Shown here: positions 32,630 through 64,000 of the stretch, in pieces | Layout: each line of letters opens with the position of its first letter | Position numbering within the stretch: the stretch's first letter is position 1 | Source: Gemmatimonadales bacterium | GTDB taxonomy: Bacteria; Gemmatimonadota; Gemmatimonadetes; Gemmatimonadales; GWC2-71-9 | Length of the DNA: 64,000 nt | Assembly (NCBI GenBank): GCA_035763885.1 | Contig: DASUAH010000034.1 | Coordinates: 104 to 64,103, forward strand | Reading direction: 5' to 3' | The notes under the pieces: generated by a model | Database searches by the model: none | Told to the model about the DNA's origin: nothing | What the model saw: only the letters and a program-made list of their open reading frames with translations | Program-made: the position numbers and the translations under genes

Positions 32630-33616
32630 TCAATCACGCAACGCCTTCGTCACCGCCCTCCAGACCCGGGCGCCCTCCGCCGCAAACGCGCCGGTCGAGA
32701 CCTGTCCGGTCGTACCGAGCCACTCCCTCGCGCACCGCGCCAGCCGCTCGGCCTCGGCATCACCGCGAACGATGGCGTAAGCTGTTGGACCCCAAGAGCT
32801 TTGGCCAACCCCCGGAGCCCCAGCCCCGGCGAATCGCTCGATCAGCATTCCGGTCGGGCCCGGCGCGAAGACGCCCCCCTGGCTCGCTGCGAACCAGCCG
32901 CCGGTTATGCGCTGGATCTCGCTCAGCGCCGCGCCGAAGGCCGCCAGGTCTCCATCGACGAGCGCCGGGAGAAGTCCCATGAGCGCCAGATGGGCCACGC
33001 GCTCCACCTCGCGGGCGGCCGGCGGGGGCAGGCGCCGGAACGCCGCGGCCTCGGCGTCGCCGCTCAGGCCCGGTGGACCCTCGGGGATCGCGAGCACGTA
33101 CCGCCACGAGGCCGGCAGCGGATACCGCGCGAGCAGCGGGGCGATGGCGTCGGACTCCGGCGGACGGCCGCCCTCGACGATGAACCCCCCGGACGCGAAC
33201 GCGTGCGTGCCGATGGCTGACCGGCGCCCGCGTCCCGCTGCGCGGGCGAGCTCCGGCGCCGCTGCGTCGATGCCGTGGAGCTCGGCGAGCGCCCGTGCCA
33301 CTGCGAGGCCGAGCTGGGTGCCCGAGCCGAGCCCCGCGTGGGCGGGGATCGCGCGGTGCACGCGGATGCGTGCCGCCCCCTGAAGGCCCCATCGCGCCGT
33401 CACGCGCCGGGCGAAGCTCGCCGCGCGCCTGGCGTCCGGCCCGGCGGCGGCGAACTCCGCCGCGCGCCCCACTTCGACGAGCAGCGACGGGGTGGGGATC
33501 GCCGCGCCCAGTCCGCCGAACCGGCGCCCCAGATCCCCCCTGAGGTCGAGCACGCCGAAGTGGAGACGCGCCGGCGCCTCCACGAACACCGCGTCCGCAT
33601 CGCCAGGCCCCGTCAC
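32630..33616 (-). CDS. beta-ribofuranosylaminobenzene 5-phosphate (beta-RFAP) synthase, H4MPT biosynthesis (GHMP-kinase fold)
   Basis: APARLHFGVLDL.G..GRRFGGLG, IPAHAGLGSGTQLGLAVA and SSWGPT motifs. The GTG 33616 start overlaps the DUF447 stop (GTGA). Confidence 0.85.
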   Translation of the reverse strand: MTGPGDADAVFVEAPARLHFGVLDLRGDLGRRFGGLGAAIPTPSLLVEVGRAAEFAAAGPDARRAASFARRVTARWGLQGAARIRVHRAIPAHAGLGSGTQLGLAVARALAELHGIDAAAPELARAAGRGRRSAIGTHAFASGGFIVEGGRPPESDAIAPLLARYPLPASWRYVLAIPEGPPGLSGDAEAAAFRRLPPPAAREVERVAHLALMGLLPALVDGDLAAFGAALSEIQRITGGWFAASQGGVFAPGPTGMLIERFAGAGAPGVGQSSWGPTAYAIVRGDAEAERLARCAREWLGTTGQVSTGAFAAEGARVWRAVTKALRD

Positions 33617-34203
33617 TTGCCCGCCCCCGCGCCCGCTTCCGCCCCCCCGGCCAGCCGCTCCGCCACGTAGCCCCGCAGCAGCTCCCAGGCCTCCTGCTCC
33701 CGGGGGCCGGCGGTCTTCTCCACCAGAACCGCGAGCCGCGCGAGCTCGTCGCGGACCTGGGCACCGGGCAGCAGGTGCACCCGGGTGGCGAGGATGGCGG
33801 CCTCGAGCACGGCGTGGCGGGCGCGATTGAACCCGATGAAATCGCGGCGGGTGCCCCGGTGGACCACCCGCGTGACGATGCGCGAGCGCGGGGGTGTGCC
33901 GTCGAGGTGCACCACTTCGAGCTCGCGCCAGGAGCACGCGGCGTCGAGGACCGCGCCCGGTACCGCCGACGCCGGCGACCAGGGAAACTCCGGGCTGGCG
34001 ATCGCGCTCCGGGCGAACAGCAGCACGTCGTCGGTCAGGTTGACCACGGCCGCGCGCGTGGCGCTCACGTTGCGGAAGGTCGTCGTGTCGAGAAACGGCT
34101 TGAGCACGATCGTCTCCTCGTCCCATTCGACACCCATGGGCGCGAAGTTGACCCGCCCGTCGGGCGCCAGCGACGTGACGATCGACTCGATGATGAGGGG
34201 CAT
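33613..34203 (-). CDS. DUF447 family protein (H4MPT-biosynthesis associated, flavin-reductase-like fold)
   Basis: 196 aa. MPLIIESIVTS...G.VNFAPMGV...T.T..N pattern. The family call is from memory and gene context. Confidence 0.7.
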   Translation of the reverse strand: MPLIIESIVTSLAPDGRVNFAPMGVEWDEETIVLKPFLDTTTFRNVSATRAAVVNLTDDVLLFARSAIASPEFPWSPASAVPGAVLDAACSWRELEVVHLDGTPPRSRIVTRVVHRGTRRDFIGFNRARHAVLEAAILATRVHLLPGAQVRDELARLAVLVEKTAGPREQEAWELLRGYVAERLAGGAEAGAGAGK

Positions 34204-34225
34204 GGTCGTCGCTGCCGGCTATCCG

Positions 34226-34930
34226 CTATCCGCCGGTGTACCATGGCGCTTCGTGCGCACGCGAGGCCCGGCGCCGGTCCAGGCCCTCGGCCGACAGCTG
34301 ATAGCCGATGGCGGAGAGCCCGAGGCCGCCGTCCGCCGCCGCCGGTGCCTCGGCCGCGCGGGCCGCATCGGCGCCGAGGAACCGGGCCAGCATCCGGTAC
34401 CCATGCTCGGTCAGCACCGATTCGGGGTGGAACTGCACTCCCACCACCGGGTGCTCCGCGTGGCGGACCGCCATGATCTCGCCGTCATCCGACGTCGCCG
34501 TCACCCTGAGCCACGGCGGCACCGATCCCGGCGCGATCACGAGCGAATGGTACCGTGTGGCGAGCAGCGGGTTGGGGAGCCCCTGGAAGATGCCGGTGCC
34601 GTCGTGCCGCACGAGGGATGTCTTGCCGTGCATCGGCCGGCGGGCGCGCACGATCTCGGCGCCGTACGCCTCCCCGATGCACTGATGTCCCAGGCACACG
34701 CCCAGGATCGGGATCGTGGCGCCGAGCCGGCGCACCAGCTCGGTGGAGATGCCCGCCTCCTTCGGCGAACACGGGCCCGGCGAGATGATGATGTGCGACG
34801 GGCCGAGCCGCGCAACCTCCTCGATCGTGATCGCGTCGTGGCGGCGGACCACCGGCGTCTCGCCGAGCTCGCGCACGTAGCGTGCGAGGTTGTAGACGAA
34901 GGAGTCGTAGTTGTCGATGAGTAAGATCAT
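34226..34930 (-). CDS. pabA: aminodeoxychorismate/anthranilate synthase glutamine amidotransferase component
   Basis: MILLIDNYDSFVYNL, catalytic GVCLGHQ and GVQFHPES. About 45 aa of C-terminal extension. Confidence 0.85.
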   Translation of the reverse strand: MILLIDNYDSFVYNLARYVRELGETPVVRRHDAITIEEVARLGPSHIIISPGPCSPKEAGISTELVRRLGATIPILGVCLGHQCIGEAYGAEIVRARRPMHGKTSLVRHDGTGIFQGLPNPLLATRYHSLVIAPGSVPPWLRVTATSDDGEIMAVRHAEHPVVGVQFHPESVLTEHGYRMLARFLGADAARAAEAPAAADGGLGLSAIGYQLSAEGLDRRRASRAHEAPWYTGG

Positions 34931-34948: not shown

Positions 34949-36424
34949 TCAGACATGCGCCAGCGCCCGGATGATCCCCCGCGCCTTGTCCAGCGTCTCG
35001 CGGTACTCCTGCTCGGGGTCCGAATCCGCCACGATCCCGCCGCCGGCCTGAAAATACACCCGCCCGCCGAGCGCCACGGCGGTGCGGATCGCGATGCTGG
35101 TATCCATCTCGCCCGTGAGGCCCAGGTACCCGAGCGAGCCGCAGTACACGCCGCGCCGCGTCGGCTCCAGCTCGGCGATGATCTCCATCGCGCGCACCTT
35201 GGGGGCACCGGTGATCGAGCCGCCGGGAAACGCGGCGCGGATGAGTGCGACCGGATCGGCCCCGGGCTCGAGCTCGCCGACCACGGTCGAGACCAGGTGG
35301 TGCACGGTCGGATGGTGCTCGAGGGCGAAGAGCTCGGGTACGCGGACCGTCCCGGGCCGGCAGACGCGCGAGAGGTCGTTCCGGAGCAGATCCACGATCA
35401 TCACGTTCTCCGCGCGGTCCTTGTCGCTCTCGGCCAGCACCTGGCTGAGCAGGGCGTCGTGCATGGGGCCCAGCCCGCGCGGGCGGGTGCCCTTGATCGG
35501 GCGGGTCTCGACATGGGTGCCGGAGAGGCGGAGGAATCGCTCCGGTGAGACGCTGAGAATCTGATGGTCGCCGGCGTCGAACCACGCCCCGAACGCGGCC
35601 GGGTTCTGCCGCCGGAGGCGGCGATAGAGCGACCATGGGTGCTCTCCGAGCGGCGCCTCGAACCGCTGCGACAGATTGGCCTGGAAGATGTCGCCCGCGA
35701 GGATGTACTCGCGCACCCGCGCGACGGCGGACAGATAGCCGCGATGGGTGAACGTGGAGCGGAGTCCGATCTGCTCGGCGCTCTCGACGCCGTAGACCGG
35801 GAACGATGGGGCGCCGTCGGAGGAGGCGACCAGCCGAGGAGCGGGAGGGAGCTGCGGGGTACGGCTCGTCCGCTCGCCGCTCGCCAAGCGCCCGCGCACG
35901 AGTGCCAGTCGTTCCCCGGCCCTCCGGGTGCGTGCGGCCCCGTCGAGCGGCATTCCGGTCGACACGATCCACGCCGACCCCTCGCAGTGGTCCCAGGCGA
36001 TCACCCAGTCGTACACGCCCAGCAGCACGTCGGGCATTGCGAGGTCGTCGTAGCGCGGCGCCGGCAGCCGCTCGAGGGTGCTGCCCCAGTCGTACGCGAT
36101 GTAGCCCGCCGCCCCGCCCTGGAACGGCGGCAGACCCGCCACCCCGGGCGCGGCGAACGGGGCCAGCTCGGCGGCGATCGCGGCGAGGGCGTCCCCGCCG
36201 CTGCGGGTCCGGCGCCCGCCGGCATCCATCCTCTCGGTGGCGGAGCCCTTGCTGCGGACGACGACACACGGGTCCGCGCAGAGGAAGCTGTAGCGCCCGG
36301 TGCGCTCGTGATCGGCGGTGCTGTCGAGGAGGAGCACCAGCGGAAGGTCGGCGAAGCGCTCCGCCGCGTCGGCCGGATCCGGCACGGAGGCGAGCGGCTC
36401 GACCAACGGCACCGCGCGGCTCAC
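34949..36424 (-). CDS. pabB: aminodeoxychorismate synthase component I
   Basis: 491 aa chorismate-binding enzyme (GDIFQANLSQRF, PGGSITGAPK, RGVYCGSLGY). The pab rather than trp assignment is from context next to beta-RFAP synthase, which uses pABA. Confidence 0.8.
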   Translation of the reverse strand: MSRAVPLVEPLASVPDPADAAERFADLPLVLLLDSTADHERTGRYSFLCADPCVVVRSKGSATERMDAGGRRTRSGGDALAAIAAELAPFAAPGVAGLPPFQGGAAGYIAYDWGSTLERLPAPRYDDLAMPDVLLGVYDWVIAWDHCEGSAWIVSTGMPLDGAARTRRAGERLALVRGRLASGERTSRTPQLPPAPRLVASSDGAPSFPVYGVESAEQIGLRSTFTHRGYLSAVARVREYILAGDIFQANLSQRFEAPLGEHPWSLYRRLRRQNPAAFGAWFDAGDHQILSVSPERFLRLSGTHVETRPIKGTRPRGLGPMHDALLSQVLAESDKDRAENVMIVDLLRNDLSRVCRPGTVRVPELFALEHHPTVHHLVSTVVGELEPGADPVALIRAAFPGGSITGAPKVRAMEIIAELEPTRRGVYCGSLGYLGLTGEMDTSIAIRTAVALGGRVYFQAGGGIVADSDPEQEYRETLDKARGIIRALAHV

Positions 36425-37902
36425 TCGGTTTCCGCGGCGCGCGCGGCCCGGCGCGACCGCTGGGTGAGCTTGACGTGCTCGGCGCGGGGATCGTCCGGGG
36501 GCGTCAGATAGCCCCAGCTGAGTGCCCCTTCCTGCCGGTAGGTCTTGCCCAGCTGCAGCGCGAGCCTGGCCTTCATCAGCTCCCGGCCGAGGTAGAAGGC
36601 GTGCATGGGCTCATCGACGCCCAGCTGGGCGAAGATGGCCTGGACGTCGGTGCCGCGCACGAAGATCTCGTTGTTGAAGACGGTGATCGCGTCGCGGTCG
36701 GCGAAGATCCGGAAGTTCGGGTCCTTCACCGCGGCGTGCAGCTCGCGCAGCTCGGCCTCGCTGTAGCCGAGCACCTCGGGATCCTTCACCGTGACCAGCC
36801 GGTCGTCCACCCCCTTGGGGACCCGCCGTTCTCGCACGGCGTAGTGCATCAGGCGTCGCGCGACGTCGAGCTCGCGCACCGACCCGCGGGCCCACGGGAT
36901 CACCTCGGTCGTGAGCACGGCGCGGACGCCGACCTCCTCCGCGATCGCCATCAATACGGCGTTCACGCCGGTGGTGTCCGCCGCAGTGAGCTCGGTGATG
37001 TTGCCCACTCCCATGAGCTGCGCCGCGTCCGGATGGCGCCGGCGCACCTCGGCGTACCGCTCCAGGGACGCCATGAAGCCGAAGCCGATCGGCTCGATGA
37101 CCGGATCGACCAAATACGGCACCCCCCAACGCTCGAGCGCCGCGATGCTCCGGTCGAGCGTATCGAGTCCCGCGCCGAAGTCCGGGATCACCACGACCTT
37201 CCCGCCACCCTCGGCGACGTCCTGCGCCACGTCGAGGTTCGTGGCGTTCACGCTGAGCACGAGCTCGGCGCCGGCCGCGACCGCGGTCCGGATCTCGTCC
37301 GGATCGAAGGAATCGATGCTCACGCGGAGCCCCGCGCCGCGGAGCTCGCGCACCGACTCGCCGAGGTGCGGGAAGGACGCACCCGGGGTGCACCCGAGAT
37401 CGATGATGTCGGCGCCGTCCGCGCGGTACCGCTCCGCGGCGGCGCGGATCGCGTCGCGCGACAACTTCGCCGCGTTGTTGATCTCGGCCAGGATCTCGAT
37501 GCTGTAGGCGCCGTAATCGGGCGCCGCGGCGGCGCGGCCGAAGTAGGCGGGAATCTCGCGCAGGTCCTTCGGTCCCTTCTCCACGCGCACCCCGAACCGC
37601 TCCGCGATGACGGCCGGATCGCCCTCGCAGAGCCCCGGAATGAGCACGAGGTCCGTGCCGTCGGGCACCTGCAGGAAGCGCGCGATCCACGGCGCGGTCA
37701 TCAGGGCGGCCACCGTGATCTTGAGGACGGCGACATGCGCCTCGAAGGGCGGGTGCATGTCCGCCAGGGTGCGGCGGAGGGCCGGCTCGGCCAGCGTGCC
37801 GGTGACGAAGAGGACGCGGCGGATGGCCGGACGGCCGGACGGCGGGACGGCCGGGTGGCCGGTCCGCTCTTCGCTACGAGGACCGTCTGCCCCGGGGAGC
37901 AC
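36421..37902 (-). CDS. H4MPT-type dihydropteroate-synthase-like protein (MJ0301-like, with N- and C-terminal extra domains)
   Basis: Pterin-binding barrel (GADIIDLGCTPG...SIDSFDP...VLSVNA...DPVIEPIGFGF). The proposed start is GTG 37902. The track ORF 36421..39249 is a run-on through upstream genes. Confidence 0.8.
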   Translation of the reverse strand: MLPGADGPRSEERTGHPAVPPSGRPAIRRVLFVTGTLAEPALRRTLADMHPPFEAHVAVLKITVAALMTAPWIARFLQVPDGTDLVLIPGLCEGDPAVIAERFGVRVEKGPKDLREIPAYFGRAAAAPDYGAYSIEILAEINNAAKLSRDAIRAAAERYRADGADIIDLGCTPGASFPHLGESVRELRGAGLRVSIDSFDPDEIRTAVAAGAELVLSVNATNLDVAQDVAEGGGKVVVIPDFGAGLDTLDRSIAALERWGVPYLVDPVIEPIGFGFMASLERYAEVRRRHPDAAQLMGVGNITELTAADTTGVNAVLMAIAEEVGVRAVLTTEVIPWARGSVRELDVARRLMHYAVRERRVPKGVDDRLVTVKDPEVLGYSEAELRELHAAVKDPNFRIFADRDAITVFNNEIFVRGTDVQAIFAQLGVDEPMHAFYLGRELMKARLALQLGKTYRQEGALSWGYLTPPDDPRAEHVKLTQRSRRAARAAETE

Positions 37903-39522: not shown

Positions 39523-42500
39523 ATGACGCTCGGTCGGGGCCTGCTGCGCAGCCGATTCGGTCGCCGTCTGGTGCTGCTGTTCGTCGGCTGCGCGGTGGTC
39601 CCGATGGCGCTGCTCGCGGTCCTGTCCTGGCGGCACATGACCCGCCAGCTCGAGCGCCAGAGCCAGTTGCGGCTCCATCAGGCGAACCGCGCCCTCGGTC
39701 GCGCGGTCTTCGAGCGGCTGCTGCTGCTCGAGGCGACGCTCAAGAACATCCCCCCCACGGCCATCGCCGAGCTGGCGCGCAGCGCGCTCGTCCCGGAGCC
39801 ACCCGCCGCCGGGCCGCCGGCTCGTACCGGCGGCGTCACGGGCGCAGTGACCCGCGCGCCGGTAGACGGGCGGGTCGCGCTCGGGGGGCTGAAAGACCGC
39901 CGAGGTCGGGCCGGGGACCCGCCAGCGCCTCCGGCCCCGAGCCACGATCCGGAGGCGAGCCGTGCGCTCGCCGTCGGGCTCGATCTCCTCGCCCGCAGCC
40001 GCTTCGCCGCACTCGAGTTCCAACCCGACGTCGGCCGCCGCCTGCCGGTCTTCGGCCGGCTTGACCGGGTCCCCGCCCTCACGCCCGCGGAGAGCGCGTT
40101 CGTCGGGGAGAGCCATACGCTCGTCGTCACCGAGCACGCCGACACCGGCGCCGCGCGGATCTATCTCGTGCGTCGCATGGATCGGCGTGAGGCGCGGGGT
40201 TTCTTCGTCGGGGAGGTGAGCCCGGCTTACCTGTGGGGCACGCGCGAGCAGGGCATGCCGTCGCCGGCGACGCATCTGGCGGTCGTGGATGACTCGGGTC
40301 ACGTGCTGTTCGGCCCGCCGCCGGTGACATCGGCGTGGGGGGGACCGGTGGACGATACGGCCGCAACGGATCCGGCCGAGGCGGGGCTGTCCTCGACTCG
40401 CGTGGAACCCGAGGTGGTCGCCAGCTACTGGCCGGTGCCGATCGAGAGCGTGTTCGGCGCTCCCGACTGGATCATCGTGCTGAGCGAGCCGAGGGAGGCT
40501 GTGGTCGGGCCGATGACCGATTTTGCGTCGACCTTCGCGCTCATCATCGCACTCTGCACCGGCGTCGTGCTGCTCCTCAGCATGAGCCAGATCCGGCGGA
40601 GTCTGATGCCGCTCGAGGAGCTGCAGGAGGGGACCCGCCGCATCGCGCTCCGTGACTTCGACACCCGTGTGGCGGTCACCAGCCACGACGAGTTCGCCGA
40701 GCTGGCGGAGTCGTTCAACTCGATGGCCACACGGCTCGGCCGGCAGTTCCGGGCGCTGGACACGGCCGCCGACATCGATCGTGCCGTGCTCAGCGCCACC
40801 GATGCCACCACCATCGTCCGGGCGGTGCTCGCGCGGCTCCCCGACGTCTATCCGTGCGCCGGCGCCTGCATCACCCTGTTCCCGGCCGACCGGGGCGGTG
40901 CCGGGCCGAGCTGGGTGAGGAGCTTCGGGGCCGCCGGGGTCCCGGAGCTGAGGCGGGTCGAGTTCGCGCCGGGTGAGCTGCGCGCGCTGGCCGCGCTTCC
41001 CGAGGTGCTCGAACTCGGCGACGGCGATCCGCTCCCCGCGTGCGTGCGGCCCCTCGCCGAACTGGGGCTCCGCTCCTTCGTCGTGCTGCCGCTCGCCTAC
41101 CAGCAGCAGCTTGCCGGCGTGCTGGTGCTCGGCGCCGCCGACGCGTCGCGGACGCCGGACGACCTGCTGCACGCCCGGCGGCTGGCCGACCAGGTCGCCG
41201 TGGCGCTGTCCAACGCGCGCATGATCGATCAGGTGCGCACGCTGGCGTACTTCGACAGCCTCACCGGGCTGCTCAACCGCGCGGCCTACAAGGAGCGCCT
41301 CGCGCGGGCGCTCGCGCTGGCGAAGCGGGACCGGCGGTCTGCGGCGGCGTTCTTCATCGACCTCGACAACTTCGGCCGCATCAACGACACGCTGGGACAT
41401 GAGCTGGGGGACGAGCTGCTCCGCCAGGTGGCCGGCCGCCTGCGCGCCTGCTGCGAGGCTGAGGAAAGTGGGCCGGGCCCCCGGGCGCGGCCCGAGGTGG
41501 CGCGCATCGGCGGTGACGAGTTCACCGTCCTCGTGGGCGGCCTGCCCCGGCCGGAAGACGCGGTCGGGCTGGCCCGGCGCATTCTCGCCGTGTTCGCGCC
41601 CTCCTTCCAGCTCGGCCAGCACGACATGTTCACGACGGCGAGTGTCGGCGTCGCGGTCTACCCGGAGGACGGCGAGGAGGTGGAGACCCTGCTCGCCCAC
41701 GCCGACACGGCGATGTACGAGGCGAAGCATCAGGGCGGCAATGGCTACCAGCTTTACTCGCGCTCCATGAACGCGACCGCGCTGCAGCGCCTCACCCTGG
41801 AGAACGATCTCCGGCGGGCGCTGGAGCGCGACGAGCTGGTGCTCCACTATCAGCCCATCGTCGAGGCCGCGACCGGCGTCATCGTCGGCGCGGAGGCGCT
41901 GGTGCGCTGGCGCCACCCCTCGCTGGGACTCCTGCTCCCGGGCGAGTTCATCGCCATCGCGGAGGAGAACGGGCTGATCGTGCCGCTGGGGGAGTGGGTG
42001 CTGCGCACGGCGTGCGCCCAGAACCGCGGGTGGCAGAGCGCGGGCCTGCCCCCGATCCGGGTCGTGGTCAACCTCTCCGGTCGGCAGCTCCGGCAAGGCA
42101 ACCTGATCGCCGGCGTGCGGGACGCGCTGGAAGCCGCGGGACTGGAGCCGGAGTGGCTCGGCCTCGAGCTCACCGAGAGCATGCTCATGGAACGCCAGCA
42201 CGAGGGCGTGTCGGCGCTGCAGGCGCTCCGGGCCATGGGCATCCAGCTCTCCATCGACGACTTCGGGACCGGCTATTCCTCCCTCAGTTACCTCAAGCAC
42301 TTCCCGGTCGATACGCTGAAGATCGATCGCTGCTTCGTGCGGGACCTCGCCAGCGTGCCCGACGACGCCGCGATCACAGCGGCGATCATCGCGATGGCGC
42401 ACGCGCTCGATCTCCTGGTGGTCGCCGAAGGCGTCGAGACCGAGGAGCACCTCGGCTTTCTCCGGGCGCAGGGATGCGACGAGGTCCAGGGACACCTGCT

Positions 42501-42600
42501 GGGCCGGCCGGTCCTGCCGGAGCGGTTCGCGGAATGGCTGGCGCGACCCCGGCCGGTGATCCGGAGCTCCAGGCGCACGACCGGGATCCGCTCGGCCTGA
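39523..42600 (+). CDS. membrane sensor diguanylate cyclase/phosphodiesterase (periplasmic domain-HAMP-GAF-GGDEF-EAL)
   Basis: Two TM helices flank a ~300-aa periplasmic region. HAMP (LMPLEELQEGTRRIALRDFD), intact RIGGDEFTV, and EAL motifs (EALVRW, ELTES, DDFGTGYSSL). The start may instead be at 39466. Confidence 0.9.
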   Translation: MTLGRGLLRSRFGRRLVLLFVGCAVVPMALLAVLSWRHMTRQLERQSQLRLHQANRALGRAVFERLLLLEATLKNIPPTAIAELARSALVPEPPAAGPPARTGGVTGAVTRAPVDGRVALGGLKDRRGRAGDPPAPPAPSHDPEASRALAVGLDLLARSRFAALEFQPDVGRRLPVFGRLDRVPALTPAESAFVGESHTLVVTEHADTGAARIYLVRRMDRREARGFFVGEVSPAYLWGTREQGMPSPATHLAVVDDSGHVLFGPPPVTSAWGGPVDDTAATDPAEAGLSSTRVEPEVVASYWPVPIESVFGAPDWIIVLSEPREAVVGPMTDFASTFALIIALCTGVVLLLSMSQIRRSLMPLEELQEGTRRIALRDFDTRVAVTSHDEFAELAESFNSMATRLGRQFRALDTAADIDRAVLSATDATTIVRAVLARLPDVYPCAGACITLFPADRGGAGPSWVRSFGAAGVPELRRVEFAPGELRALAALPEVLELGDGDPLPACVRPLAELGLRSFVVLPLAYQQQLAGVLVLGAADASRTPDDLLHARRLADQVAVALSNARMIDQVRTLAYFDSLTGLLNRAAYKERLARALALAKRDRRSAAAFFIDLDNFGRINDTLGHELGDELLRQVAGRLRACCEAEESGPGPRARPEVARIGGDEFTVLVGGLPRPEDAVGLARRILAVFAPSFQLGQHDMFTTASVGVAVYPEDGEEVETLLAHADTAMYEAKHQGGNGYQLYSRSMNATALQRLTLENDLRRALERDELVLHYQPIVEAATGVIVGAEALVRWRHPSLGLLLPGEFIAIAEENGLIVPLGEWVLRTACAQNRGWQSAGLPPIRVVVNLSGRQLRQGNLIAGVRDALEAAGLEPEWLGLELTESMLMERQHEGVSALQALRAMGIQLSIDDFGTGYSSLSYLKHFPVDTLKIDRCFVRDLASVPDDAAITAAIIAMAHALDLLVVAEGVETEEHLGFLRAQGCDEVQGHLLGRPVLPERFAEWLARPRPVIRSSRRTTGIRSA

Positions 42601-42622: not shown

Positions 42623-43297
42623 TCACCCCGGCCCTGCAGCCCTTCCGCTCATCCGCTCTTCGATGAGCGCTCCCAGCCGCTCCACCTCATACGCCGCGAT
42701 CACCGCCACTGGCAGCCGTTCCGGCACGACCGTCGGGAAGCAGGGATCCGTCAGCTCGCCCGGCGCGCCGGACACCGGCTTGACCAGCACGAGGAGCCCG
42801 GCATCGAGCGCCCCCGCCAGAAACGCGGCCACGCTGTCGCTCGTCGCGTTCCAGCTGTGGGGCAGGACGTCCGCGGCCAGCATCCAGTCCGACGGCGCGA
42901 GCACCGGCACCTTCCCGGCCCGGTGCGCCGCGCCGATCTCCTCCGCGCTCCGCACCACGACCGATCCCGGCACCCGATCCGCCAGCGCGTACGCGTACTG
43001 ATCCATCGCGAGGATCGCCATCCAGTGTGCGGCGGCCGGGGTGAGACCATGGGTCCGCTCGAACTCCCGCACCGCGTCCGCGAACGGTCCGCCGCCGGGG
43101 ACGACGACGACCGGACGGCGGCCGGCGGCGGCGGCCACGGCGCGGCCGACCCGCTCGAGCGCCTCGCGCGCCGTCGCGAGCCCGCCCCCGACCTTGACGA
43201 TCGCGAGCAACGAGGCGCCCTCAGGTTGACGCCGCCGATCGGCCTGCCGATCATCGTCGGAGCCGTGGTCACTAGCCAGGGAGCGCATGGAGATCAT
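42623..43297 (-). CDS. amino-acid-kinase-fold protein (aspartate/glutamate/uridylate kinase family) of the H4MPT/MFR cluster
   Basis: LLAIVKVGGGLA, VVVPGGGPFAD. The start is ambiguous: ATG 43297, ATG 43288, or TTG 43210 (GAGGG Shine-Dalgarno 7 nt upstream), which would free a 76-bp intergenic region. Confidence 0.75.
   Translation of the reverse strand: MISMRSLASDHGSDDDRQADRRRQPEGASLLAIVKVGGGLATAREALERVGRAVAAAAGRRPVVVVPGGGPFADAVREFERTHGLTPAAAHWMAILAMDQYAYALADRVPGSVVVRSAEEIGAAHRAGKVPVLAPSDWMLAADVLPHSWNATSDSVAAFLAGALDAGLLVLVKPVSGAPGELTDPCFPTVVPERLPVAVIAAYEVERLGALIEERMSGRAAGPG
43226..43254 (+). promoter_or_regulatory. possible promoter TTGACG-N17-GATCAT for the HisA-like gene
   Basis: -35 at 43226-43231 and -10 at 43249-43254. 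This only makes sense if the divergent kinase gene starts at TTG 43210. Confidence 0.25.
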
Positions 43298-44084
43298 TCC
43301 CGTAGTGGATGTGGCGCGTGGCGTGGCCGTCCACGCGCAGGGCGGCGACCGGTCGGCCTACGCCCCGGTGAAGTCTGCCGTGGCGCCGGAGCACCCCGGC
43401 GACCCGCTCGCGCTGGTCCGGGCCTACCGTGACGTGCTGGGCGCGCGGGTGTGTTATGCGGCCGACCTCGACGCCCTGCAGGGCGGCCCCATTCAGCGGG
43501 GGCTCATCCGGGACCTGGCCGCGTTCCAGACCGGCTTCGCCGGCGAGCTGCTGGTGGATGCCGGCGCGTGCGATGCGGACGGCGTGCTGGAGGTGCTCTC
43601 CTGCGGGGCGTCCGATGCCGTCGTCGGCCTGGAGACCCTGCACGCGTTCGCCGACCTGCGGGCGATCGTGGACGCGGCCGGGGCGAGCCGGGTGATCTTC
43701 GGGCTGGACCTGCGGCTCGGCACGCCGATGATCCATCCGCAGCTGCAGGACGTGTGCGGGGCGCCGGATCCCGTGAGCCTGGCCGGGCAGGCGGCCGACT
43801 GCGGTGTGACGAGCATGCTGGTGCTCGACCTCGGCCGGATCGGCACGGGCTGCGGCGTGGACCTCTCCCTGGTCGAGGCCCTGCGACGGCGATGCCCGGA
43901 CGCGCGACTGCTGGCCGGTGGCGGGGTGCTGACGCGCCGGGATCTCGAGCGGATGGCGGGCGCGGGGTGCGACGGGGCCCTCGTCGCGAGCGCGGTTCAC
44001 GCCGGCCGGATCACCGCGGAGGACGTGGCCGCGCTGCGGCACCGCCGGCCGGCGGCTCAATCCGGGGCGAGCGTCTCCCGGTAG
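43287..44084 (+). CDS. HisA/HisF-family (beta/alpha)8-barrel protein, H4MPT-biosynthesis associated
   Basis: MEIIPVVDVARGVAV....GD, AADLDAL, GGGV motifs. GGGAG Shine-Dalgarno. The 3-prime end overlaps the convergent PTPS-like gene by 28 nt. Confidence 0.8.
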   Translation: MEIIPVVDVARGVAVHAQGGDRSAYAPVKSAVAPEHPGDPLALVRAYRDVLGARVCYAADLDALQGGPIQRGLIRDLAAFQTGFAGELLVDAGACDADGVLEVLSCGASDAVVGLETLHAFADLRAIVDAAGASRVIFGLDLRLGTPMIHPQLQDVCGAPDPVSLAGQAADCGVTSMLVLDLGRIGTGCGVDLSLVEALRRRCPDARLLAGGGVLTRRDLERMAGAGCDGALVASAVHAGRITAEDVAALRHRRPAAQSGASVSR

Positions 44085-46238: not shown

Positions 46239-47225
46239 CTACTCGGGATAGCACGACGCCGTCAGCACCGCGGGATCCAGGTTGCCCGCGCTGAAGGTGC
46301 GCCCGGTCGTCGTGCTGGTGAGCCGCACCTGGGCCGGGCTGAACAACAGCGGGTCGATCTTGTAGAAGTCGCCGTCGTAGCGCTGGAAGATCTCGTAGAA
46401 CGGTGTGCCACAATCGGGCGAGGAGGACGCCGGCACCTTCGGCGCCAGCTCGGCGAGTTCCTCGTCGCCGGCGCGCACGGTGAAGTGCGCCTGGGCGCCG
46501 TAGAGGATGCAGTCGTTGGTGCGGCCGATCGCGCGGATGTCGTTCTTTGCGACCGGAGGAATCGGCGCCATGCCCATGCCGCTGACCACCTTTCGCACAT
46601 CGAACCCCAGCGTCTCCATCTTGTGGAGCCCGGTCTCGAGCACCCGCGCCGCGATCTGGACGCCACCCGCGAGGCTGGCGGTGGGGGCGATGACGAACGT
46701 GAGCTGGGAGGGCTGGAGACCGGCCTTCGCCGCCACCCATGCCGCGACTGCGTCGGTAGGGAGCCGGCGGCCCTCGAGCACGAGCACGCCCTGCTCGGCC
46801 TGCTCGGCGTACTCCAGCTTCTCGAACAGCTCCTTCTCGACGCGGGCGTGCGCCCGCAACGGGCCGGACCCCATCGCGAAGAATTCCCCGACCGAGATCG
46901 CCCAGCCGGCGTACTGCGAGGCCATGCACGCCACCGCGGGGTGGTCCGTCCACACCGTGACCCCCGGCCAGGTGCGGTCGCCGATGGGCAGCGGGCTGTA
47001 GACGACGTTGCCCAGGCCGCCCATGCAGATCTTGGCGAGAGCGAGGCCGGCGTCGAAGCCACCGTCCACCTCCACTCCGGCGTCGATCACCCGTGCCCCG
47101 CCGGGCAGGCGATGGACCCGGACGCGGAGCCGCGCGGCATTCTCCTCCACGGCGTCCGCGATCTCCACCGCCAGCTCGTTGAGACCCAGCGCGTCGAGAC
47201 TGGGTGACGTCGTTCCGATGGTCAT
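46239..47225 (-). CDS. mch: methenyl-tetrahydromethanopterin cyclohydrolase
   Basis: 328 aa. Mch-typical ...VIDAGV...GG..AGL.LA.ICMGGLG.V...; SQYAGW; GSGP.RA. ATGA overlap with the upstream ftr. Confidence 0.9.
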   Translation of the reverse strand: MTIGTTSPSLDALGLNELAVEIADAVEENAARLRVRVHRLPGGARVIDAGVEVDGGFDAGLALAKICMGGLGNVVYSPLPIGDRTWPGVTVWTDHPAVACMASQYAGWAISVGEFFAMGSGPLRAHARVEKELFEKLEYAEQAEQGVLVLEGRRLPTDAVAAWVAAKAGLQPSQLTFVIAPTASLAGGVQIAARVLETGLHKMETLGFDVRKVVSGMGMAPIPPVAKNDIRAIGRTNDCILYGAQAHFTVRAGDEELAELAPKVPASSSPDCGTPFYEIFQRYDGDFYKIDPLLFSPAQVRLTSTTTGRTFSAGNLDPAVLTASCYPE

Positions 47226-51544: not shown

Positions 51545-52894
51545 CTAGGCGGATGCGCCGGGCAGACTCACCGCGGGCGGGAGGCGGTTGCCGCCGAGGA
51601 GCGCACGCACCCGGTCACGGATGCCGGTGAGGATCTCCTGGTCGCTCGGGTACGGCGAGTCGAACGCCGGCCGCAGCGTGATCGGCACGTCATCCATGCG
51701 GTACACCGTCCCGGTCACGTTGATGCCGTAGGTGGCCGTGGTGAACGCCACCCGTGCCAGCTGGCTCGTGTGGGTGACCTTGGGGTCGAGCGTGATGACG
51801 GGGATATGCCGGAGGTGCTCGATCGCCGCCTTCGGGAAATTGGACGCGGGATCGCTCGCGATGATCAGCGCCGCGTCGGCGTCGCCGCGCGACAGGGTGT
51901 CCACCGTGGTGAACTCGCCCGGGTTGAACCGGGGGAAGCCGCGGCTGAAGTTCACCCCGAACGGGAAGCCGGTCTGCCACGACACCACGTTGTCCGCCCC
52001 GGTCACGTTGCCGTGCCCCCGCACGGGCTTGGCAACCCAGTGCGCGAACTCGTTGAGGTCCGTCGCCAGCGCGAGCAGCGCACCGGAGTTGAAGTGCCGC
52101 CCGCGGTTCATCGTGAGACCCATGCCGAACAGCAGCGCGCCGTAGCGGCAGCTCTTCATCCGCGCGACGAGATCCTCGAGGACGGCGAGCGACACGCCGG
52201 TCCGCCGCTCGATCGACGGATCGACCTTGCGCCCCCTGACCAGGGCGCGGAGCGCCCACAGCACCTCGAAATCGGTCCGGGGCTTGACCTGGATGAAGAT
52301 GTCGGCCACCGGCGTGCTCGCCGTGCGACGCACGTCGACCAGCACCACCGTCCGGTCCTTCCGGCCGTTGGGCGTGTACAGGCCCTTCGCGGTCACCGCG
52401 TAGCGGGTGAAGAGCCGCGGGTGCGCCTCGGCCGGGTTCCCTCCCCAGAAGACGACCATGTCGGCGCGGTTCTTGATCTCGCCCAGCGAGGCGGTGCTCT
52501 CGCCCACGCCCTGGAACGCGATCCCCGACGGGCCGTGGCAGACCGAGGTCGTGGTGTCCACCGTGCCCCCGATCATGTCGCCGATGGACACGGCGACCCG
52601 CTGCGCCTCGCAGGTCGTATCCGAGAGCCCGTAGATGATGGGGAACCGGGCCGTGGCGAGGATCTGCGCCGCTTCCTCGATCGCGTCCTCGACCGTGGCC
52701 TCCCGGCCCCCGATCAGCGCTGCCGGGCGCGCCTCCACGCCGTGCTCCCGGAACCACGCCTTCCCGAGCACGCAGGCGTTTTCGGCCTTGGTGATGCGCT
52801 TGTGCTCGAGGTCCACGGTCAGCACCATGTCGTCGCACACGCAGCCGCAGAACGTGCAGGTGGCGTTCTCGACCACCCGGGTGTTTTCGCTCAT
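51545..52894 (-). CDS. fwdB: formylmethanofuran dehydrogenase subunit B, catalytic-type (Mo/W-bisPGD fold with Cys-His ligand motif)
   Basis: 449 aa. N-terminal Cys cluster ATCTFCGCVCDD, TSVCHGPSG (Cys119 = TGC at 52538-52540, His120) and VRGHGNVTGADN. ATGA overlap with the fwdD stop. Confidence 0.9.
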   Translation of the reverse strand: MSENTRVVENATCTFCGCVCDDMVLTVDLEHKRITKAENACVLGKAWFREHGVEARPAALIGGREATVEDAIEEAAQILATARFPIIYGLSDTTCEAQRVAVSIGDMIGGTVDTTTSVCHGPSGIAFQGVGESTASLGEIKNRADMVVFWGGNPAEAHPRLFTRYAVTAKGLYTPNGRKDRTVVLVDVRRTASTPVADIFIQVKPRTDFEVLWALRALVRGRKVDPSIERRTGVSLAVLEDLVARMKSCRYGALLFGMGLTMNRGRHFNSGALLALATDLNEFAHWVAKPVRGHGNVTGADNVVSWQTGFPFGVNFSRGFPRFNPGEFTTVDTLSRGDADAALIIASDPASNFPKAAIEHLRHIPVITLDPKVTHTSQLARVAFTTATYGINVTGTVYRMDDVPITLRPAFDSPYPSDQEILTGIRDRVRALLGGNRLPPAVSLPGASA

Positions 52895-53268
52895 CCCGCT
52901 ACTCCTCCAGAGGGCGACGCGTCCTCCCGCACCGGCTCCACCTCCACCTCGAGGTTCTTGGAGATGGGCATCCCGCTCGCCGCCGTGTCACTCGCCATGA
53001 GCTCGCTGGACGCGGGCCCGTAGGCCATGAACAGGACGCCAGGCGGCAAGTCCTTGGTCTCGCGACTCTTGCACCGTACGACGGTCTCCCCGCCCGGCGT
53101 CCGCAGCCGCACCCGGCTGTTGTTCGCCAGCCCGAGACGGGCCATGTCCTCGACGTTCATCTCGACGGTGGTCGTCAGGTCCACGTATTCCGCGCCGAGC
53201 TTTCCGGCGCACAGGGAGGTCCCCTGCTTGCTGGAGCGCCCGCCGATCAGGGTCATCACCTCAGGCAT
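52891..53268 (-). CDS. fwdD: formylmethanofuran dehydrogenase subunit D (molybdopterin dinucleotide-binding beta-barrel domain)
   Basis: 125 aa. LIGGRSSKQG......K...Y......VEMN.EDM..LG......V.L....G..VV.C...........G..FM pattern typical of FwdD/FmdD. Confidence 0.85.
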   Translation of the reverse strand: MPEVMTLIGGRSSKQGTSLCAGKLGAEYVDLTTTVEMNVEDMARLGLANNSRVRLRTPGGETVVRCKSRETKDLPPGVLFMAYGPASSELMASDTAASGMPISKNLEVEVEPVREDASPSGGVAG

Positions 53269-53320: not shown

Positions 53321-54705
<1,385 letters not shown>

Positions 54706-54709
<4 letters not shown>

Positions 54710-55602: not shown

Positions 55603-55607
55603 CGGGG

Positions 55608-59798: not shown

Positions 59799-59811
59799 CA
59801 GGAGGGATCGC

Positions 59812-61733: not shown

Positions 61734-62788
61734 ACGCCGAGCCCGTGATCGGCTGGGATCTCGGCGGCGCCCACCTCAAGGCCGCGCGCCTGGGTGGCTC
61801 GGGCGCGGTCGAGCGGGTGCTGCAGATCCCCTGCCCCCTGTGGCAGGGGATGCACCATCTCGATGCCGCCCTGGAGCGGGCGGCAGCGGAGCTGGGCCGC
61901 GCCTCCGTCCACGCCGTGACGATGACGGGCGAGATGGTCGATCTCTTCGGCGACCGCCGGGAGGGCGTGGCCCGGCTGGTCACGGCGATGCGCGAGCACG
62001 TGTCCACTGCCGCCCTGTGGCTGTACGCGGGTGCCGATGGCTTCCTCGAGGCCGACCGGGCCGGCACCGCGGCCGGCCGGATCGCTTCCGCGAACTGGAT
62101 GGCGAGCGCCTCGCTGGTCGCCGCGCGCGTCCCTGCCGCGCTGCTCGTCGACATCGGCAGCACGACTACCGATCTGGTGCTCGTGGAGGGCGGCTGCGTC
62201 CGGGCGCGCGGCCGCGACGACGGCGAGCGCCTGGCTGCGGGGGAGCTGCTCTACACCGGCGTCGTGCGCACGCCGGTCATGGCTTTGGTCCCCCACGTCC
62301 CGTTCGGGGGCGAGTGGGTGCCCCTGATGGCCGAGTGCTTCGCGACCACCGCCGACGTCCACCGACTGGGTGGACGGCTGCCCGATGGCGCCGACCAGCA
62401 CCCGGCCGCCGACGGGGGCGAGAAGACCATCCCCGGCAGCGCGCGGCGCCTGGCGCGCATGATCGGTCGCGACCTGGATTCGGCGCCGCCTGGCGCGTGG
62501 CGCGCCCTCGCGGACTGGCTGGCTCGCGCGCAAACCCGCGCGATCGGGGACGCAGCCGACCGGCTGCTCTCACGGGGGCTCCTCGCCGATGACGCCCCCA
62601 TGGTCGGCGCGGGGATCGGCCGGTTCGTCGCGGCGGAGCTCGCGCGGGGTCGCGACCGCCCGTACCTGGACTTCGGAAGCCTGGTGTCCGGCAGCGACCC
62701 CGAGCGCGTTCGGGCGTCGGACTGCGCGCCCGCGGTCGCGGTGGCGTGGCTGGCCCAGCGGGCGCGGCCGGGTCAGAGACCGGTCTAG
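61730..62788 (+). CDS. hydantoinase/oxoprolinase-fold 'H4MPT-linked C1 transfer pathway' protein
   Basis: GTG 61730 (GTGA overlap). VIGWDLGGAHLKAA, LVDIGSTTTDLV, GELLYTGVVRTPV. ASKHA-type phosphate motifs. Confidence 0.8.
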   Translation: MNAEPVIGWDLGGAHLKAARLGGSGAVERVLQIPCPLWQGMHHLDAALERAAAELGRASVHAVTMTGEMVDLFGDRREGVARLVTAMREHVSTAALWLYAGADGFLEADRAGTAAGRIASANWMASASLVAARVPAALLVDIGSTTTDLVLVEGGCVRARGRDDGERLAAGELLYTGVVRTPVMALVPHVPFGGEWVPLMAECFATTADVHRLGGRLPDGADQHPAADGGEKTIPGSARRLARMIGRDLDSAPPGAWRALADWLARAQTRAIGDAADRLLSRGLLADDAPMVGAGIGRFVAAELARGRDRPYLDFGSLVSGSDPERVRASDCAPAVAVAWLAQRARPGQRPV

Positions 62789-63480
62789 CTGAGGGCGAGA
62801 GCCGGCCGCGGGATCCGCCGCCGCACATCGGCCAGGGATCCGGGATCGAGCACCGAGCCGCGCACTCCTCCCGAGCACAGCGCGCCGCGGAATCCGAGAT
62901 AGTCGGGACCCAGCCGAAGCAGCGGCGGGATGTCGCTCGGCGTCAGCGACCCCGCGAGGCCGGCGAACAGCCCTGCCGCCCGCGCCGCGCGGACGAACCG
63001 GGCCAGGTCCTCGTCGGCTGCGTGCGTCCGCAGCCCGCCCGACCGCTTGTCGGCGGTGTCGAGCATGACGCCGCGCAGCCCCGCGGCCGCGATCCGATCG
63101 AGCCGCGAGAGGTCCGGTCGCTGATCGGCGAACAGCACCGCCACCACCCTCACGCCCGCTCGCGCGGCCCGGGCCAGCGCATCGAGGCAAGGGTCGAACG
63201 GCCCGCCGCCGAACAGTCCGACCTTCACGAACGACACACCGGTGGCGGCCATCTCGGCGATGGCCGGGGCGAGGAGCAGGGGCTGCATCGGCAGGTCGCC
63301 GACCGTGGCGCTCACGGGCACGCGGCCGTCCACGAATCGCACGACGTCCGCGGCGACATCGACCGCTACCGCGCCCAGCGCGCCGGCAGACGGTTCCTTG
63401 AGATCGAGGATGTCGGCCCCGCCCGCGAGCGCCATGCGCGCTTCCGTGATGGTCCGGACGCTGGCCAGGAGGAGGGTCAC
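62785..63480 (-). CDS. mfnB: (5-formylfuran-3-yl)methyl phosphate synthase (MfnB, DUF556), methanofuran biosynthesis
   Basis: 231 aa from GTG 63480. LLASVRTITEARMALAGGADILDLKEP..GALGA, SATVGD, FVKVGL, VMLDTADK, GLAGSL and YLGFRGALC parallel the archaeal MfnB pattern. Confidence 0.85.
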   Translation of the reverse strand: MTLLLASVRTITEARMALAGGADILDLKEPSAGALGAVAVDVAADVVRFVDGRVPVSATVGDLPMQPLLLAPAIAEMAATGVSFVKVGLFGGGPFDPCLDALARAARAGVRVVAVLFADQRPDLSRLDRIAAAGLRGVMLDTADKRSGGLRTHAADEDLARFVRAARAAGLFAGLAGSLTPSDIPPLLRLGPDYLGFRGALCSGGVRGSVLDPGSLADVRRRIPRPALALS

Positions 63481-64000
63481 CGGGCGAGCCCCACGCGACG
63501 GCGCGCGGCCGCGGGAGTGATCACCGCGAGGTGATCGAGCACGGTGCCCGCCGCCGCGCGGATGCGCATCCCGTCCACCAGCGGCTGAAAGGCGCCGCCG
63601 GCCAGCCCGTCGGCGAGGATTGCCGCGCCCTGCGCCGCCGCCTTGGCCGTTCGGGCGAAGCCGTCGAGCCGGCGCACCGGCGCGATGGCGCGGAGGCCCG
63701 GCTCCAGCCGCTCGCCAACGCCCGGCTCGGCGAGAGAGCGGCCGGACAGCAGGATCTCTCGGGGCGCGGGCAGCGAGACGAGCAGGCTGCGAACCGCCTT
63801 GAGCGCCCCCTCCGCGAACGCGTCCAGCGCCAGTTCCCGTTGCGAGGGGTCCTGCTCCGCCACGAATCCGGCCCCGCCGCGAAAGAGCATGGCCTTGGTC
63901 ACCTCTCCCGCGAGGTAGGCCACCTCGCCGTCCAACGCCCCGCACGAACGCCAGCCGATCGGGCCGCTCGTGCCGCCGACACCATCGACGACCCGGCCCT
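63477..64000 (-). CDS. partial CDS (C-terminal ~174 codons; open to window end), DUF1464/ASKHA-like protein
   Basis: The frame stays open from 63477 to base 63998, the last complete codon before the window edge at 64000 (…GRVVDGVGGTSGPIGWRSCGALDGEVAYLAGEVTKAMLF…). GTGA overlap with the mfnB start. The family call is tentative. Confidence 0.6.
   Translation of the reverse strand, partial: GRVVDGVGGTSGPIGWRSCGALDGEVAYLAGEVTKAMLFRGGAGFVAEQDPSQRELALDAFAEGALKAVRSLLVSLPAPREILLSGRSLAEPGVGERLEPGLRAIAPVRRLDGFARTAKAAAQGAAILADGLAGGAFQPLVDGMRIRAAAGTVLDHLAVITPAAARRRVGLAR

Follow-up and report, generated by a model that had tools for sequence, protein, structure and literature searches.

The 64,000 bp stretch of DNA analysed here, referred to below as the window, was taken from the metagenome-assembled genome (MAG) of an uncultured Gemmatimonadales bacterium (assembly GCA_035763885.1, contig DASUAH010000034.1, positions 104 to 64,103); the contig, at 64,383 bp, is 383 bp longer than the window. 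Between positions 32630 and 64000, adjoining a xoxF-type methanol dehydrogenase gene, lies a cluster of genes for the biosynthesis of tetrahydromethanopterin (H4MPT) and methylofuran and for one-carbon (C1) transfer. The paired formyl-converting genes of this cluster belong to different enzymes: one set is of the Fhc hydrolase type and the other of the Fwd dehydrogenase type. Judging from the redox motifs retained in its subunits, the Fwd set probably encodes a real formyl-methylofuran dehydrogenase, and an FprA-type ferredoxin-NADP+ reductase (FNR) is encoded within the same operon. As the best explanation of the locus we propose, and consider likely, an XoxF-using methylotroph with two routes for the formyl group, one through Fhc and the other through Fwd with the FprA-type reductase. 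Catalysis and electron flow are read here from gene identities, gene order, operon structure, motif conservation and adjacency statistics.

The window has a G+C content of about 70%, so that raw open reading frame (ORF) lists consist mostly of spurious frames. Genes were called from the GC content of third codon positions (GC3) together with the frame plot, and families were assigned by NCBIfam and Pfam profile scans of the called genes. Between 32630 and 64000, 30 genes were identified, the last of which (DUF1464) is cut by the window end, and 27 of them belong to H4MPT or methylofuran biosynthesis or to C1 transfer. A preliminary description of the window had counted 30 genes in a contiguous H4MPT and methanofuran biosynthesis and C1-transfer cluster next to xoxF, most of them part of an archaeal-type C1 module; the gene calling and family scans bear this out, and each family that it had named was recovered with NCBIfam or Pfam profiles. 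The two genes that it left unnamed encode the FNR (53321-54709) and a tandem EthD-domain protein (45446-46237). The genes are organised in three co-directional arrays: a seven-gene pterin/p-aminobenzoate array, a 14-gene C1 array and a four-gene methylofuran array, the last accompanied by mfnB and the DUF1464 gene. The locus is almost certainly an H4MPT/methylofuran formaldehyde-oxidation module.

The C1 array runs on the minus strand from 58626 to 44057 in the order fhcB-like, fhcA, ftr1, FNR, fwdD, fwdB, fwdA, fwdC1, fwdC2, ftr2, mch, tandem-EthD, CitG-like and PTPS-like. Every intergenic gap among the 14 genes is at most 64 bp, and the genes overlap by 4 bp at four junctions. The C1 enzymes had previously been listed as mch and fwdD with two copies each of ftr, fwdA/fhcA, fwdB/fhcB and fwdC. 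The families stand, since the cutoffs of TIGR03120, TIGR03119 (twice), TIGR03121 (twice) and TIGR03122 (twice) were passed, as was that of TIGR03129 for one B subunit. The notion of simple duplicates does not, as motifs and orthology divide the genes into an Fhc-type set (fhcB-like, fhcA, fhcD-like ftr1 and fhcC-like fwdC2) and an Fwd-type set (fwdD, fwdB, fwdA, fwdC1 and ftr2).

The metallopterin subunit of the Fwd set is encoded by fwdB (51545..52894), whose product scores 491 bits with TIGR03129, 380 bits with 8RJA_B and 367 bits with 5T5I_B. All of its expected redox features are kept: the four-cysteine motif CTFCGCVCDD..NAC, the Cys-His pair within SVCHGPS and the arginine within PVRGH. 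The adjacent fwdD gene (52891..53268) overlaps fwdB by 4 bp and encodes the molybdopterin-dinucleotide-binding cap domain (PF01568, 46.8 bits with a cutoff of 26.8). The amidohydrolase subunit, encoded by fwdA (49843-51525), scores 691 bits with TIGR03121 and 495 bits with 8RJA_A, and is 80% identical to its counterpart in a related Gemmatimonadales MAG (GCA_035538515.1; locus L081). Its metal-ligand motifs HxH, K, H, H and D are all present and align with archaeal FwdA as DIHCHIAG, KLVNPGG, HIHCN, IQFHSYG and TDHPNGG. The C subunit of this module, encoded by fwdC1 (49016-49846), is 73% identical to that of L081. The formyltransferase gene ftr2 (47222..48133; TIGR03119, 431 bits) encodes a protein that shares 75% identity with the only Ftr present in L081; the window protein scores 311-317 bits against three archaeal Ftr chains and marginally less, 308 bits, against Methylorubrum extorquens FhcD. 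It is followed by mch (46239..47225), encoding methenyl-H4MPT cyclohydrolase (TIGR03120, 411 bits with a cutoff of 229).

The Fhc-type set differs at the active site of its B subunit. In comparison with Fwd, Fhc has lost Cys118, His119, Arg288 and the N-terminal cluster domain and has no FwdD, and its structure paper names it as the only known bacterial methylofuran enzyme (PMC6926001). The fhcB-like gene (57334-58626) reaches 302 bits where the cutoff is 328, and its product gives 118 bits with the FwdB chain of 5T5I. The active-site segment reads NSPAVLRN and the arginine site PLGGSDG, so that the catalytic Cys118, His119 and Arg288 are all lost. Unlike M. extorquens FhcB, however, the protein keeps an N-terminal four-cysteine motif (CPFCGLTCDD..NGC), as do 14 of 15 related FhcB-like genes, and by sequence the subunit seems to stand midway between Fwd and the classical Fhc. 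The set is completed by fhcA (55608-57269; TIGR03121 above cutoff), by ftr1 (54706-55602), an fhcD-like formyltransferase gene whose best match is M. extorquens FhcD (6S6Y_D, 334 bits), and by fwdC2 (48161..48976; TIGR03122, 256 bits), an FhcC-type C subunit gene whose product is 46-47% identical to an Azospirillum C subunit and 37% identical to that of L081. Taken together, the products of fhcB, fhcA, ftr1 and fwdC2 are 43-61% identical to Azospirillum Fhc. The run FNR-fwdD-fwdB-fwdA-fwdC1-ftr2-mch is conserved in L081 at 73-84% identity, and no fhc set is present in the 21-kb locus read from that genome. The fwdD, fwdB, fwdA, fwdC1 and FNR products are also 63-79% identical to those of an Alphaproteobacteria MAG (L082), with Ftr at 52-57%.

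FwdB of the window was used to scan metagenomes, which returned 80 loci with 81 FwdB copies at 72-92% identity. The loci were annotated by tblastn with the window proteins and with Fae, Mtd and ferredoxins from relatives. The motif SVCHGP[ST]G is kept in 80 of the 81 copies, as is the four-cysteine motif, and PVRGH is kept in 77; retention at this level argues for selection on redox function. Named homologues include Anaerolineae. In L148 (8001-10700) two fwdB copies stand in tandem, with 73% and 69% identity to the window protein, and these may be metal isoforms.

The FNR gene (minus strand) encodes a 462-residue protein that matches Mycobacterium tuberculosis FprA (1LQT) over residues 11-455 with 390 bits and mitochondrial adrenodoxin reductase (1CJC) over its full length with 365 bits. 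Rossmann motifs for FAD and NADP binding are present as VGSGPSG and IGQGNVAIDV. The start of the gene overlaps the stop of ftr1 by 4 bp, and the gene lies 52 bp upstream of fwdD. Among the 80 metagenome loci, an FNR gene is found beside the fwd genes in 31, upstream in 17 and downstream in 14, and 25 of these 31 have a 7Fe ferredoxin gene next to it. Where at least 2 kb could be read on both sides, FNR is adjacent in 12 of 17 loci. The order FwdD-B-A-Ftr-C-Fdx-FNR (Fdx, ferredoxin) occurs in both the Alphaproteobacteria MAG L082 and a Gammaproteobacteria MAG (L164), and in the latter it continues directly into FhcB-A-D-C as one run; in L165 Fwd genes are present with no FNR within the locus. 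A 520-residue metagenomic protein (P0045) was considered as a physical link between FNR and FwdD, but the apparent fusion is a single read-through across the spacer, perhaps caused by a sequencing error.

Under the scheme that we favour, formaldehyde from XoxF would be attached to H4MPT with Fae, oxidised by Mtd and cyclohydrolysed by Mch, and the formyl group would be moved to methylofuran by Ftr. From this point, one route would lead through the Fhc-type complex, composed of the FhcB-like scaffold, FhcA, Ftr1 and FwdC2, with release of formate. This formate could be used by an H4F (tetrahydrofolate)-to-serine route, which Butterfield et al. report for Gemmatimonadetes (PMC5103831). In the other route, FwdA, in complex with FwdB, FwdC1 and FwdD and served by Ftr2 as a free transferase, would hydrolyse formyl-methylofuran, and the channelled formate would be oxidised to CO2 at the Cys-ligated Mo/W-pterin of FwdBD. 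Electrons would pass from the [4Fe-4S] cluster of FwdB to a 7Fe ferredoxin, encoded beside the cluster in relatives and not on this contig, and the FprA-type reductase would then yield NADPH. The potential of NADP+ is -320 mV. With an E0' of about -530 mV for formyl-methanofuran (formyl-MFR)/CO2 (PMC11656701), electron transfer from Fwd to NADP+ would be strongly downhill. Such a route would bypass free formate and formate dehydrogenase, here alongside an intermediate-type Fhc. Coupling of Fwd to NADP+ through ferredoxin and FNR is a proposal for which the genomic evidence leaves acceptance and doubt in balance. The same even weighting applies to the broader proposal that a genuine Mo/W formyl-methylofuran dehydrogenase, yielding CO2 and NADPH by way of 7Fe ferredoxin and FNR, operates in many uncultured bacteria, the MAGs concerned being labelled Gemmatimonadota, Alpha- and Gammaproteobacteria and Anaerolineae.

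Several observations weigh against this scheme. The organism is an uncultured MAG; Fae and Mtd are not seen directly in the contig; and FwdD scores only 63 bits with the FwdD model NF042908, below its curated cutoff of 175. The electron path is incomplete in cis, as neither a ferredoxin gene nor a ferredoxin motif occurs across the window: a six-frame scan for CxxCxxCxxxC and a tblastn search with the 7Fe ferredoxin of relatives found none there, and no frame of the window has a ferredoxin motif that could represent the polyferredoxin subunits FwdF or FwdG. FNR is missing beside fwd in five of the 17 fully informative loci. Finally, L083 has an FNR of comparable similarity to that of the window (68% identity), and there the reductase and its ferredoxin adjoin a 2-oxoacid:ferredoxin oxidoreductase.

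The last three of these points would also be explained if the Fwd set were a real dehydrogenase and FNR a housekeeping enzyme rather than its dedicated partner, with the ferredoxin pool or another molecule as acceptor; FNR may be a general housekeeping reductase because the L083 pair adjoins an oxidoreductase of a different kind. Against this, 31 of the 80 loci have FNR next to fwd genes, arranged in two different ways and spread over MAGs whose labels name different phyla, and in the window the gene is embedded in the operon, with its start overlapping the stop of ftr1 and with fwdD 52 bp away. We regard a housekeeping role as unlikely on these grounds. The L083 arrangement itself (6197-11598, from an Acidiferrobacterales MAG), in which the 7Fe ferredoxin and FprA-type reductase genes stand beside the 2-oxoacid:ferredoxin oxidoreductase and not beside Fwd, suggests a general role in ferredoxin re-oxidation in aerobes.

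A duplicated Fhc would require that both sets are redox-inactive, that formate is the sole product and that separate formate dehydrogenases finish the oxidation. To date Fhc is indeed the sole bacterial methylofuran enzyme to have been characterised (PMC6926001), and the two A subunits exceed the cutoff of one shared NCBIfam equivalog model, as do the two C subunits for theirs. What FwdB keeps, however, namely the four cysteines, the Cys-His pair and the arginine, together with the presence of fwdD, is exactly what Fhc has lost, and of the 81 environmental copies, which are 72-92% identical, 77-80 preserve these features; a mere duplication is thus very unlikely.

In a further alternative, Fwd would run reductively as in methanogens, attaching CO2 to methylofuran to feed C1 assimilation, with electrons from ferredoxin that NADPH has reduced. 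Fwd enzymes are reversible, M. tuberculosis FprA normally passes electrons from NADPH to ferredoxin, and the closest solved homologues include CO2-reducing enzymes. Driving the -530 mV couple from NADPH at -320 mV would, however, be strongly unfavourable unless bifurcation were involved, and the locus has no genes of Hdr or Nfn type; the position of the cluster beside xoxF, and beside fae and mtd in relatives, points instead to an oxidative route. A reductive direction is accordingly highly improbable.

The co-occurrence of Fhc and Fwd could also be an artefact of a recently transferred island or of a chimeric or mis-binned contig, as the fhc set is like proteobacterial Fhc (43-61% identity to Azospirillum) and the fwd set shares 80-81% identity with proteins that carry Anaerolineae and Gammaproteobacteria labels, yet this is scarcely credible when the GC and GC3 of the cluster match those of its flanks (0.719 versus 0.706 and 0.911 versus 0.902, respectively), codon bias does not differ between the fhc half and the fwd half, and interleaving of fhc and fwd genes recurs in the independent contigs L096, L097, L099-L102, L104, L105 and L113, where the order is fhcB-fhcA-ftr1-(FNR)-fwdD-B-A-(ftr2)-C1-C2. 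A composition-based test for an island of horizontal origin came out negative, with no sign of recent acquisition, and the region, described as an island in the preliminary description, is a gene cluster and not a recently acquired island, because its composition is not distinct from the flanks.

The cluster can be compared with several known systems. The M. extorquens-type cluster of methylotrophic Proteobacteria (fae, mtd, mch, fhcCDAB, mptG, orf5/7/9/17/19-22 and orfY) shares with the window mch, the fhcA/B/C/D-type genes, mptG, the dihydropteroate synthase (DHPS)-like and DUF447 genes, MfnB/E/F, the HisA-like Orf17, the MyfA/MyfB-type ligases and the link to methanol oxidation. In contrast to that cluster, the window adds an FwdDBAC set with redox motifs and an FprA-type reductase, and it has pabAB and genes for a pterin-4a-carbinolamine dehydratase (PCD)-like protein and a short-chain dehydrogenase/reductase (SDR) in its pterin operon; its mfnB lies apart from the DHPS-like and DUF447 genes, and fae and mtd are not on the contig.

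H4MPT gene clusters beside xoxF are already known, including one from Gemmatimonadetes described by Butterfield et al. in 2016 (PMC5103831). In that paper, H4MPT genes with fae, mtdB, fhc and mch lie directly upstream of a gene for a xoxF-type pyrroloquinoline quinone (PQQ) methanol dehydrogenase; the formyl-converting genes are labelled 'fhc' only, and the word formylmethanofuran is absent from the text read. The cluster as such is ordinary, one more H4MPT/methylofuran cluster beside xoxF in Gemmatimonadota. The present analysis adds to it a separate Fwd module that seems redox-competent and is accompanied by an FprA-type reductase, with an Fhc of intermediate type as its neighbour.

Among archaeal enzymes, the FwdABCDFG complex of M. 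wolfeii (W/Mo formylmethanofuran dehydrogenase, 5T5I) has A and B homologues here that score 367-480 bits, and the zinc ligands, the [4Fe-4S] motif, the equivalents of Cys118, His119 and Arg288 and the FwdD cap are all present. Unlike that complex, the window module has no FwdF or FwdG, and it occurs in a bacterial host, in a context of aerobic-type methylotrophy and with a presumed oxidative direction. The best solved matches to the A and B subunits are those of the F420-reducing Fwd of Candidatus Ethanoperedens thermophilum (8RJA; PMC11493965), in which formyl-MFR is oxidised towards a higher-potential acceptor through an attached reductase, providing a thermodynamic pull (PMC11493965). Its reductase is F420-dependent, whereas here an NADP(H) flavoenzyme of FprA type would take this place, with a 7Fe ferredoxin in relatives. 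FprA (1LQT) and adrenodoxin reductase (1CJC) resemble the window protein in full-length homology, similar length and both dinucleotide-binding motifs. They pass electrons from NADPH to ferredoxins for P450s, and the flow envisaged here would be opposite, from ferredoxin to NADP+.

Earlier surveys have touched on bacterial homologues. According to a 2016 opinion article, Archaea, Synergistetes, Firmicutes and NC10 retain fwdD, which Planctomycetes and Proteobacteria lack (PMC5020050). A survey of the DMSO reductase family counted bacterial FwdB homologues with no functional analysis (PMC10100899), and the only bacterial case that a review from 2024 on formylmethanofuran dehydrogenases brings up is the distant Fhc complex. 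Our literature search, with incomplete coverage that left subscription journals mostly outside, found no description of a ferredoxin/NADP-linked bacterial Fwd.

If the proposed scheme is correct, the Fwd module would be a second bacterial methylofuran enzyme and would represent a new electron-acceptor module for Fwd. The accounting of carbon and reductant in environmental methylotrophs would shift, with one NADPH gained per formyl group; a formate pool would be unnecessary, and the pathway would depend on Mo or W. An evolutionary path leading from archaeal Fwd to bacterial Fhc has been proposed, and the loci would offer extant intermediates for it. For CO2/formyl-amide biocatalysis, an Fwd that may tolerate oxygen and whose electron chain is simple, soluble and NADP-linked would be attractive. 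For annotation, the automatic labels 'formylmethanofuran dehydrogenase' and 'fhc' in bacteria would hide two functionally different enzymes, which can be separated as Fwd and Fhc by testing for the SVCHGP motif together with fwdD.

Profile hidden Markov model (HMM) scans of all called genes identified neither fae nor mtd (mtdA/mtdB) in the 64-kb window, in agreement with the preliminary description, and tblastn of the window with Fae and Mtd of a related MAG gave only matches with E>7. The same scans found no DHFR-type DmrA or Afp/DmrB flavoprotein among the called genes of the window. In L081 the genes are ordered Fae, Mtd, DUF1464, MfnF, ATP-grasp, RimK, ATP-grasp, FNR, FwdD, FwdB, FwdA, FwdC, Ftr, Mch, CitG, PTPS, HisA-like, AA-kinase (amino-acid kinase), MfnB and SDR, and in another Gemmatimonadales locus (L095) Mtd also adjoins DUF1464. 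Since the window contig ends at DUF1464, where relatives have Fae-Mtd (L081) or Mtd (L095), the absence of fae and mtd is most likely a contig-end effect, and the synteny leads us to expect both genes just past the end, beyond DUF1464. The earlier suggestion that they may lie beyond 64000 thus finds indirect support from L081 and L095.

The xoxF gene (30128..31939, minus strand) encodes a lanthanide-type PQQ methanol dehydrogenase (TIGR03075, 673 bits) with a signal peptide when translation begins at the ATG at 31939. Among solved structures, XoxF1 (6OC5) is the best match, with 731 bits. The product reads DEWDYDG, so that the DYD motif with the additional aspartate that serves in lanthanide binding is present. 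These features substantiate the assignment as xoxF, and the gene adjoins the cluster at a distance of 690 bp downstream of mptG. The intervening 690 bp (31940-32629), between the mptG stop and the xoxF start, contain no convincing ORF and no Rfam match, and presumably correspond to the promoter or regulatory region of xoxF. Downstream of xoxF are a xoxJ-like gene (28983-29957) and a cytochrome c gene (28400-28990), after which the minus strand at 26420-28385 encodes a pentapeptide-repeat protein and a 'PQQ-dependent catabolism-associated beta-propeller' protein.

The pterin/p-aminobenzoate operon runs on the minus strand from 39197 to 32630 and is transcribed in the order SDR, PCD, MJ0301-type DHPS-like, pabB, pabA, DUF447 and mptG, with each family as originally named. 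The first gene (38403-39197) gives generic SDR scores; the PCD-like gene (37935-38315) scores 97 bits with NF002017. The SDR was considered as a substitute for DmrA, of pteridine-reductase type, but it has the classical, ordinary TGxxxGIG motif instead of the FolM-type signature TGxxxRxG, and with generic SDR scores only the idea is speculation. The MJ0301-type DHPS-like gene of H4MPT biosynthesis (36421..37902) scores 196 bits with TIGR00284, below the cutoff of 257, and carries the Pfam domains DUF6513, Pterin_bind and PterinBD-DUF4346. The aminodeoxychorismate synthase genes pabB (34949-36424; TIGR00553, 363 bits with a cutoff of 328) and pabA (34226-34930; TIGR00566, 235 bits) would supply p-aminobenzoate. 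They are followed by a DUF447 gene (33613..34203; PF04289 and PF20766), the solved relatives of which are all uncharacterised, and by mptG (32630..33616), encoding beta-RFAP synthase (TIGR00144, 170 bits with a cutoff of 113.5). An H4MPT biosynthesis set is thus present, with mptG above cutoff and the DHPS-like protein below it but with pterin-binding domains. The order SDR-PCD-DHPS-like-pabB-pabA also occurs in L145.

The cofactor genes between the operons, and those at the end of the C1 operon, likewise belong to the families first proposed. An MfnE/Orf21-like kinase of amino-acid-kinase fold (42623..43297, minus strand; NF040622, 78 bits, below cutoff; PF00696) has an uncertain start, with 43210 as the alternative. 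It is divergent to a HisA/HisF-like Orf17 homologue (43287..44084, plus strand; TIGR00734, 98 bits), and the two starts (43287-43297) overlap as called. Orf17 is required for methylofuran synthesis in M. extorquens (PMC8141765). At the end of the C1 operon, on the minus strand, are the PTPS-like gene (44057-44608; PF01242, 76 bits), the CitG-like gene (44550-45419; PF01874, 237 bits) and the tandem-EthD gene (TIGR02118, 142 bits, in two stretches), the product of which has a lipoprotein-type signal (LVALALAC|G) and only uncharacterised solved relatives. This lipoprotein gene is placed between mch and the CitG-like gene in an otherwise cytoplasmic operon. Homologues of it occur in L097, L100, L101 and L104, all of which have ftr1, fwdC2 and fwd genes, with fhcB/fhcA where the contig extends far enough; the EthD gene is confined to loci with both fhc and fwd sets, and the fwd-only loci are without it.

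The methylofuran array (58635 to 62788, plus strand) consists of four genes assigned from Pfam and NCBIfam: an ATP-grasp gene of MyfA/OrfY type (58635-59798), a RimK-type ligase gene of MyfB/Orf5 type (59812-60741), an MfnD/Orf1-like ATP-grasp gene (60738-61733) and a gene of MfnF/Orf9 type (61730-62788; Hydantoinase_A, TIGR03123). At the right end, on the minus strand, lie mfnB (62785..63480), of the (5-formylfuran-3-yl)methyl phosphate synthase family (NF002576, 275 bits, below the cutoff of 297; NF002575, 113 bits), and the 3' part of the DUF1464 gene (63477..64000; PF07318, 116 bits over profile positions 169-325), whose 5' part is cut off. All of these families had been recognised before; the 'MptN-like' RimK is the counterpart of MyfB/Orf5 and the additional ATP-grasp protein that of MyfA/OrfY, both of them methylofuran glutamate ligases, and the hydantoinase-like protein corresponds to MfnF/Orf9. 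The names follow PMC8141765 (Orf22 is MfnB, Orf21 MfnE, Orf9 MfnF, Orf17 HisA-like, Orf5 MyfB and OrfY MyfA) and, for Orf1 as MfnD, PMC5020050. The MfnB, MfnE, MfnF, Orf17, MyfA and MyfB families of the methylofuran set are all represented, and equivalog scores below the cutoffs of archaeal models are as expected for bacterial versions. In proteobacterial loci the MyfA/OrfY-like homologue adjoins mch. A scan of a genome collection with MfnB gave a closest match of 62% identity and no representative of Gemmatimonadota. In most of the 80 methylotroph genome loci sampled (L001-L080), the DHPS-like, DUF447 and mfnB genes are adjacent and co-directional; in the window, mfnB lies about 25 kb apart from the DHPS-like/DUF447 pair, beside DUF1464. 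The divergent starts of the fhcB-like (minus strand) and ATP-grasp (plus strand) genes at 58620-58660 are 8-38 bp apart, and at least one promoter must therefore lie within coding sequence.

The plus-strand gene at 39523..42600 encodes a HAMP-GAF-GGDEF-EAL signalling protein according to Pfam (EAL, GGDEF, HAMP, GAF). It had been singled out as the clearest exception to the C1 module, and this assessment holds; the gene is missing at the same place in L081. An Rfam scan of the whole window returned nothing at the gathering score, with no molybdenum cofactor (Moco) or THF riboswitch. Outside the cluster, a single 577-residue ORF on the minus strand (2685-4418) joins two enzymes, with residues 4-282 matching prephenate dehydratase and residues 306-564 a DAHP synthase of the Bacillus type.

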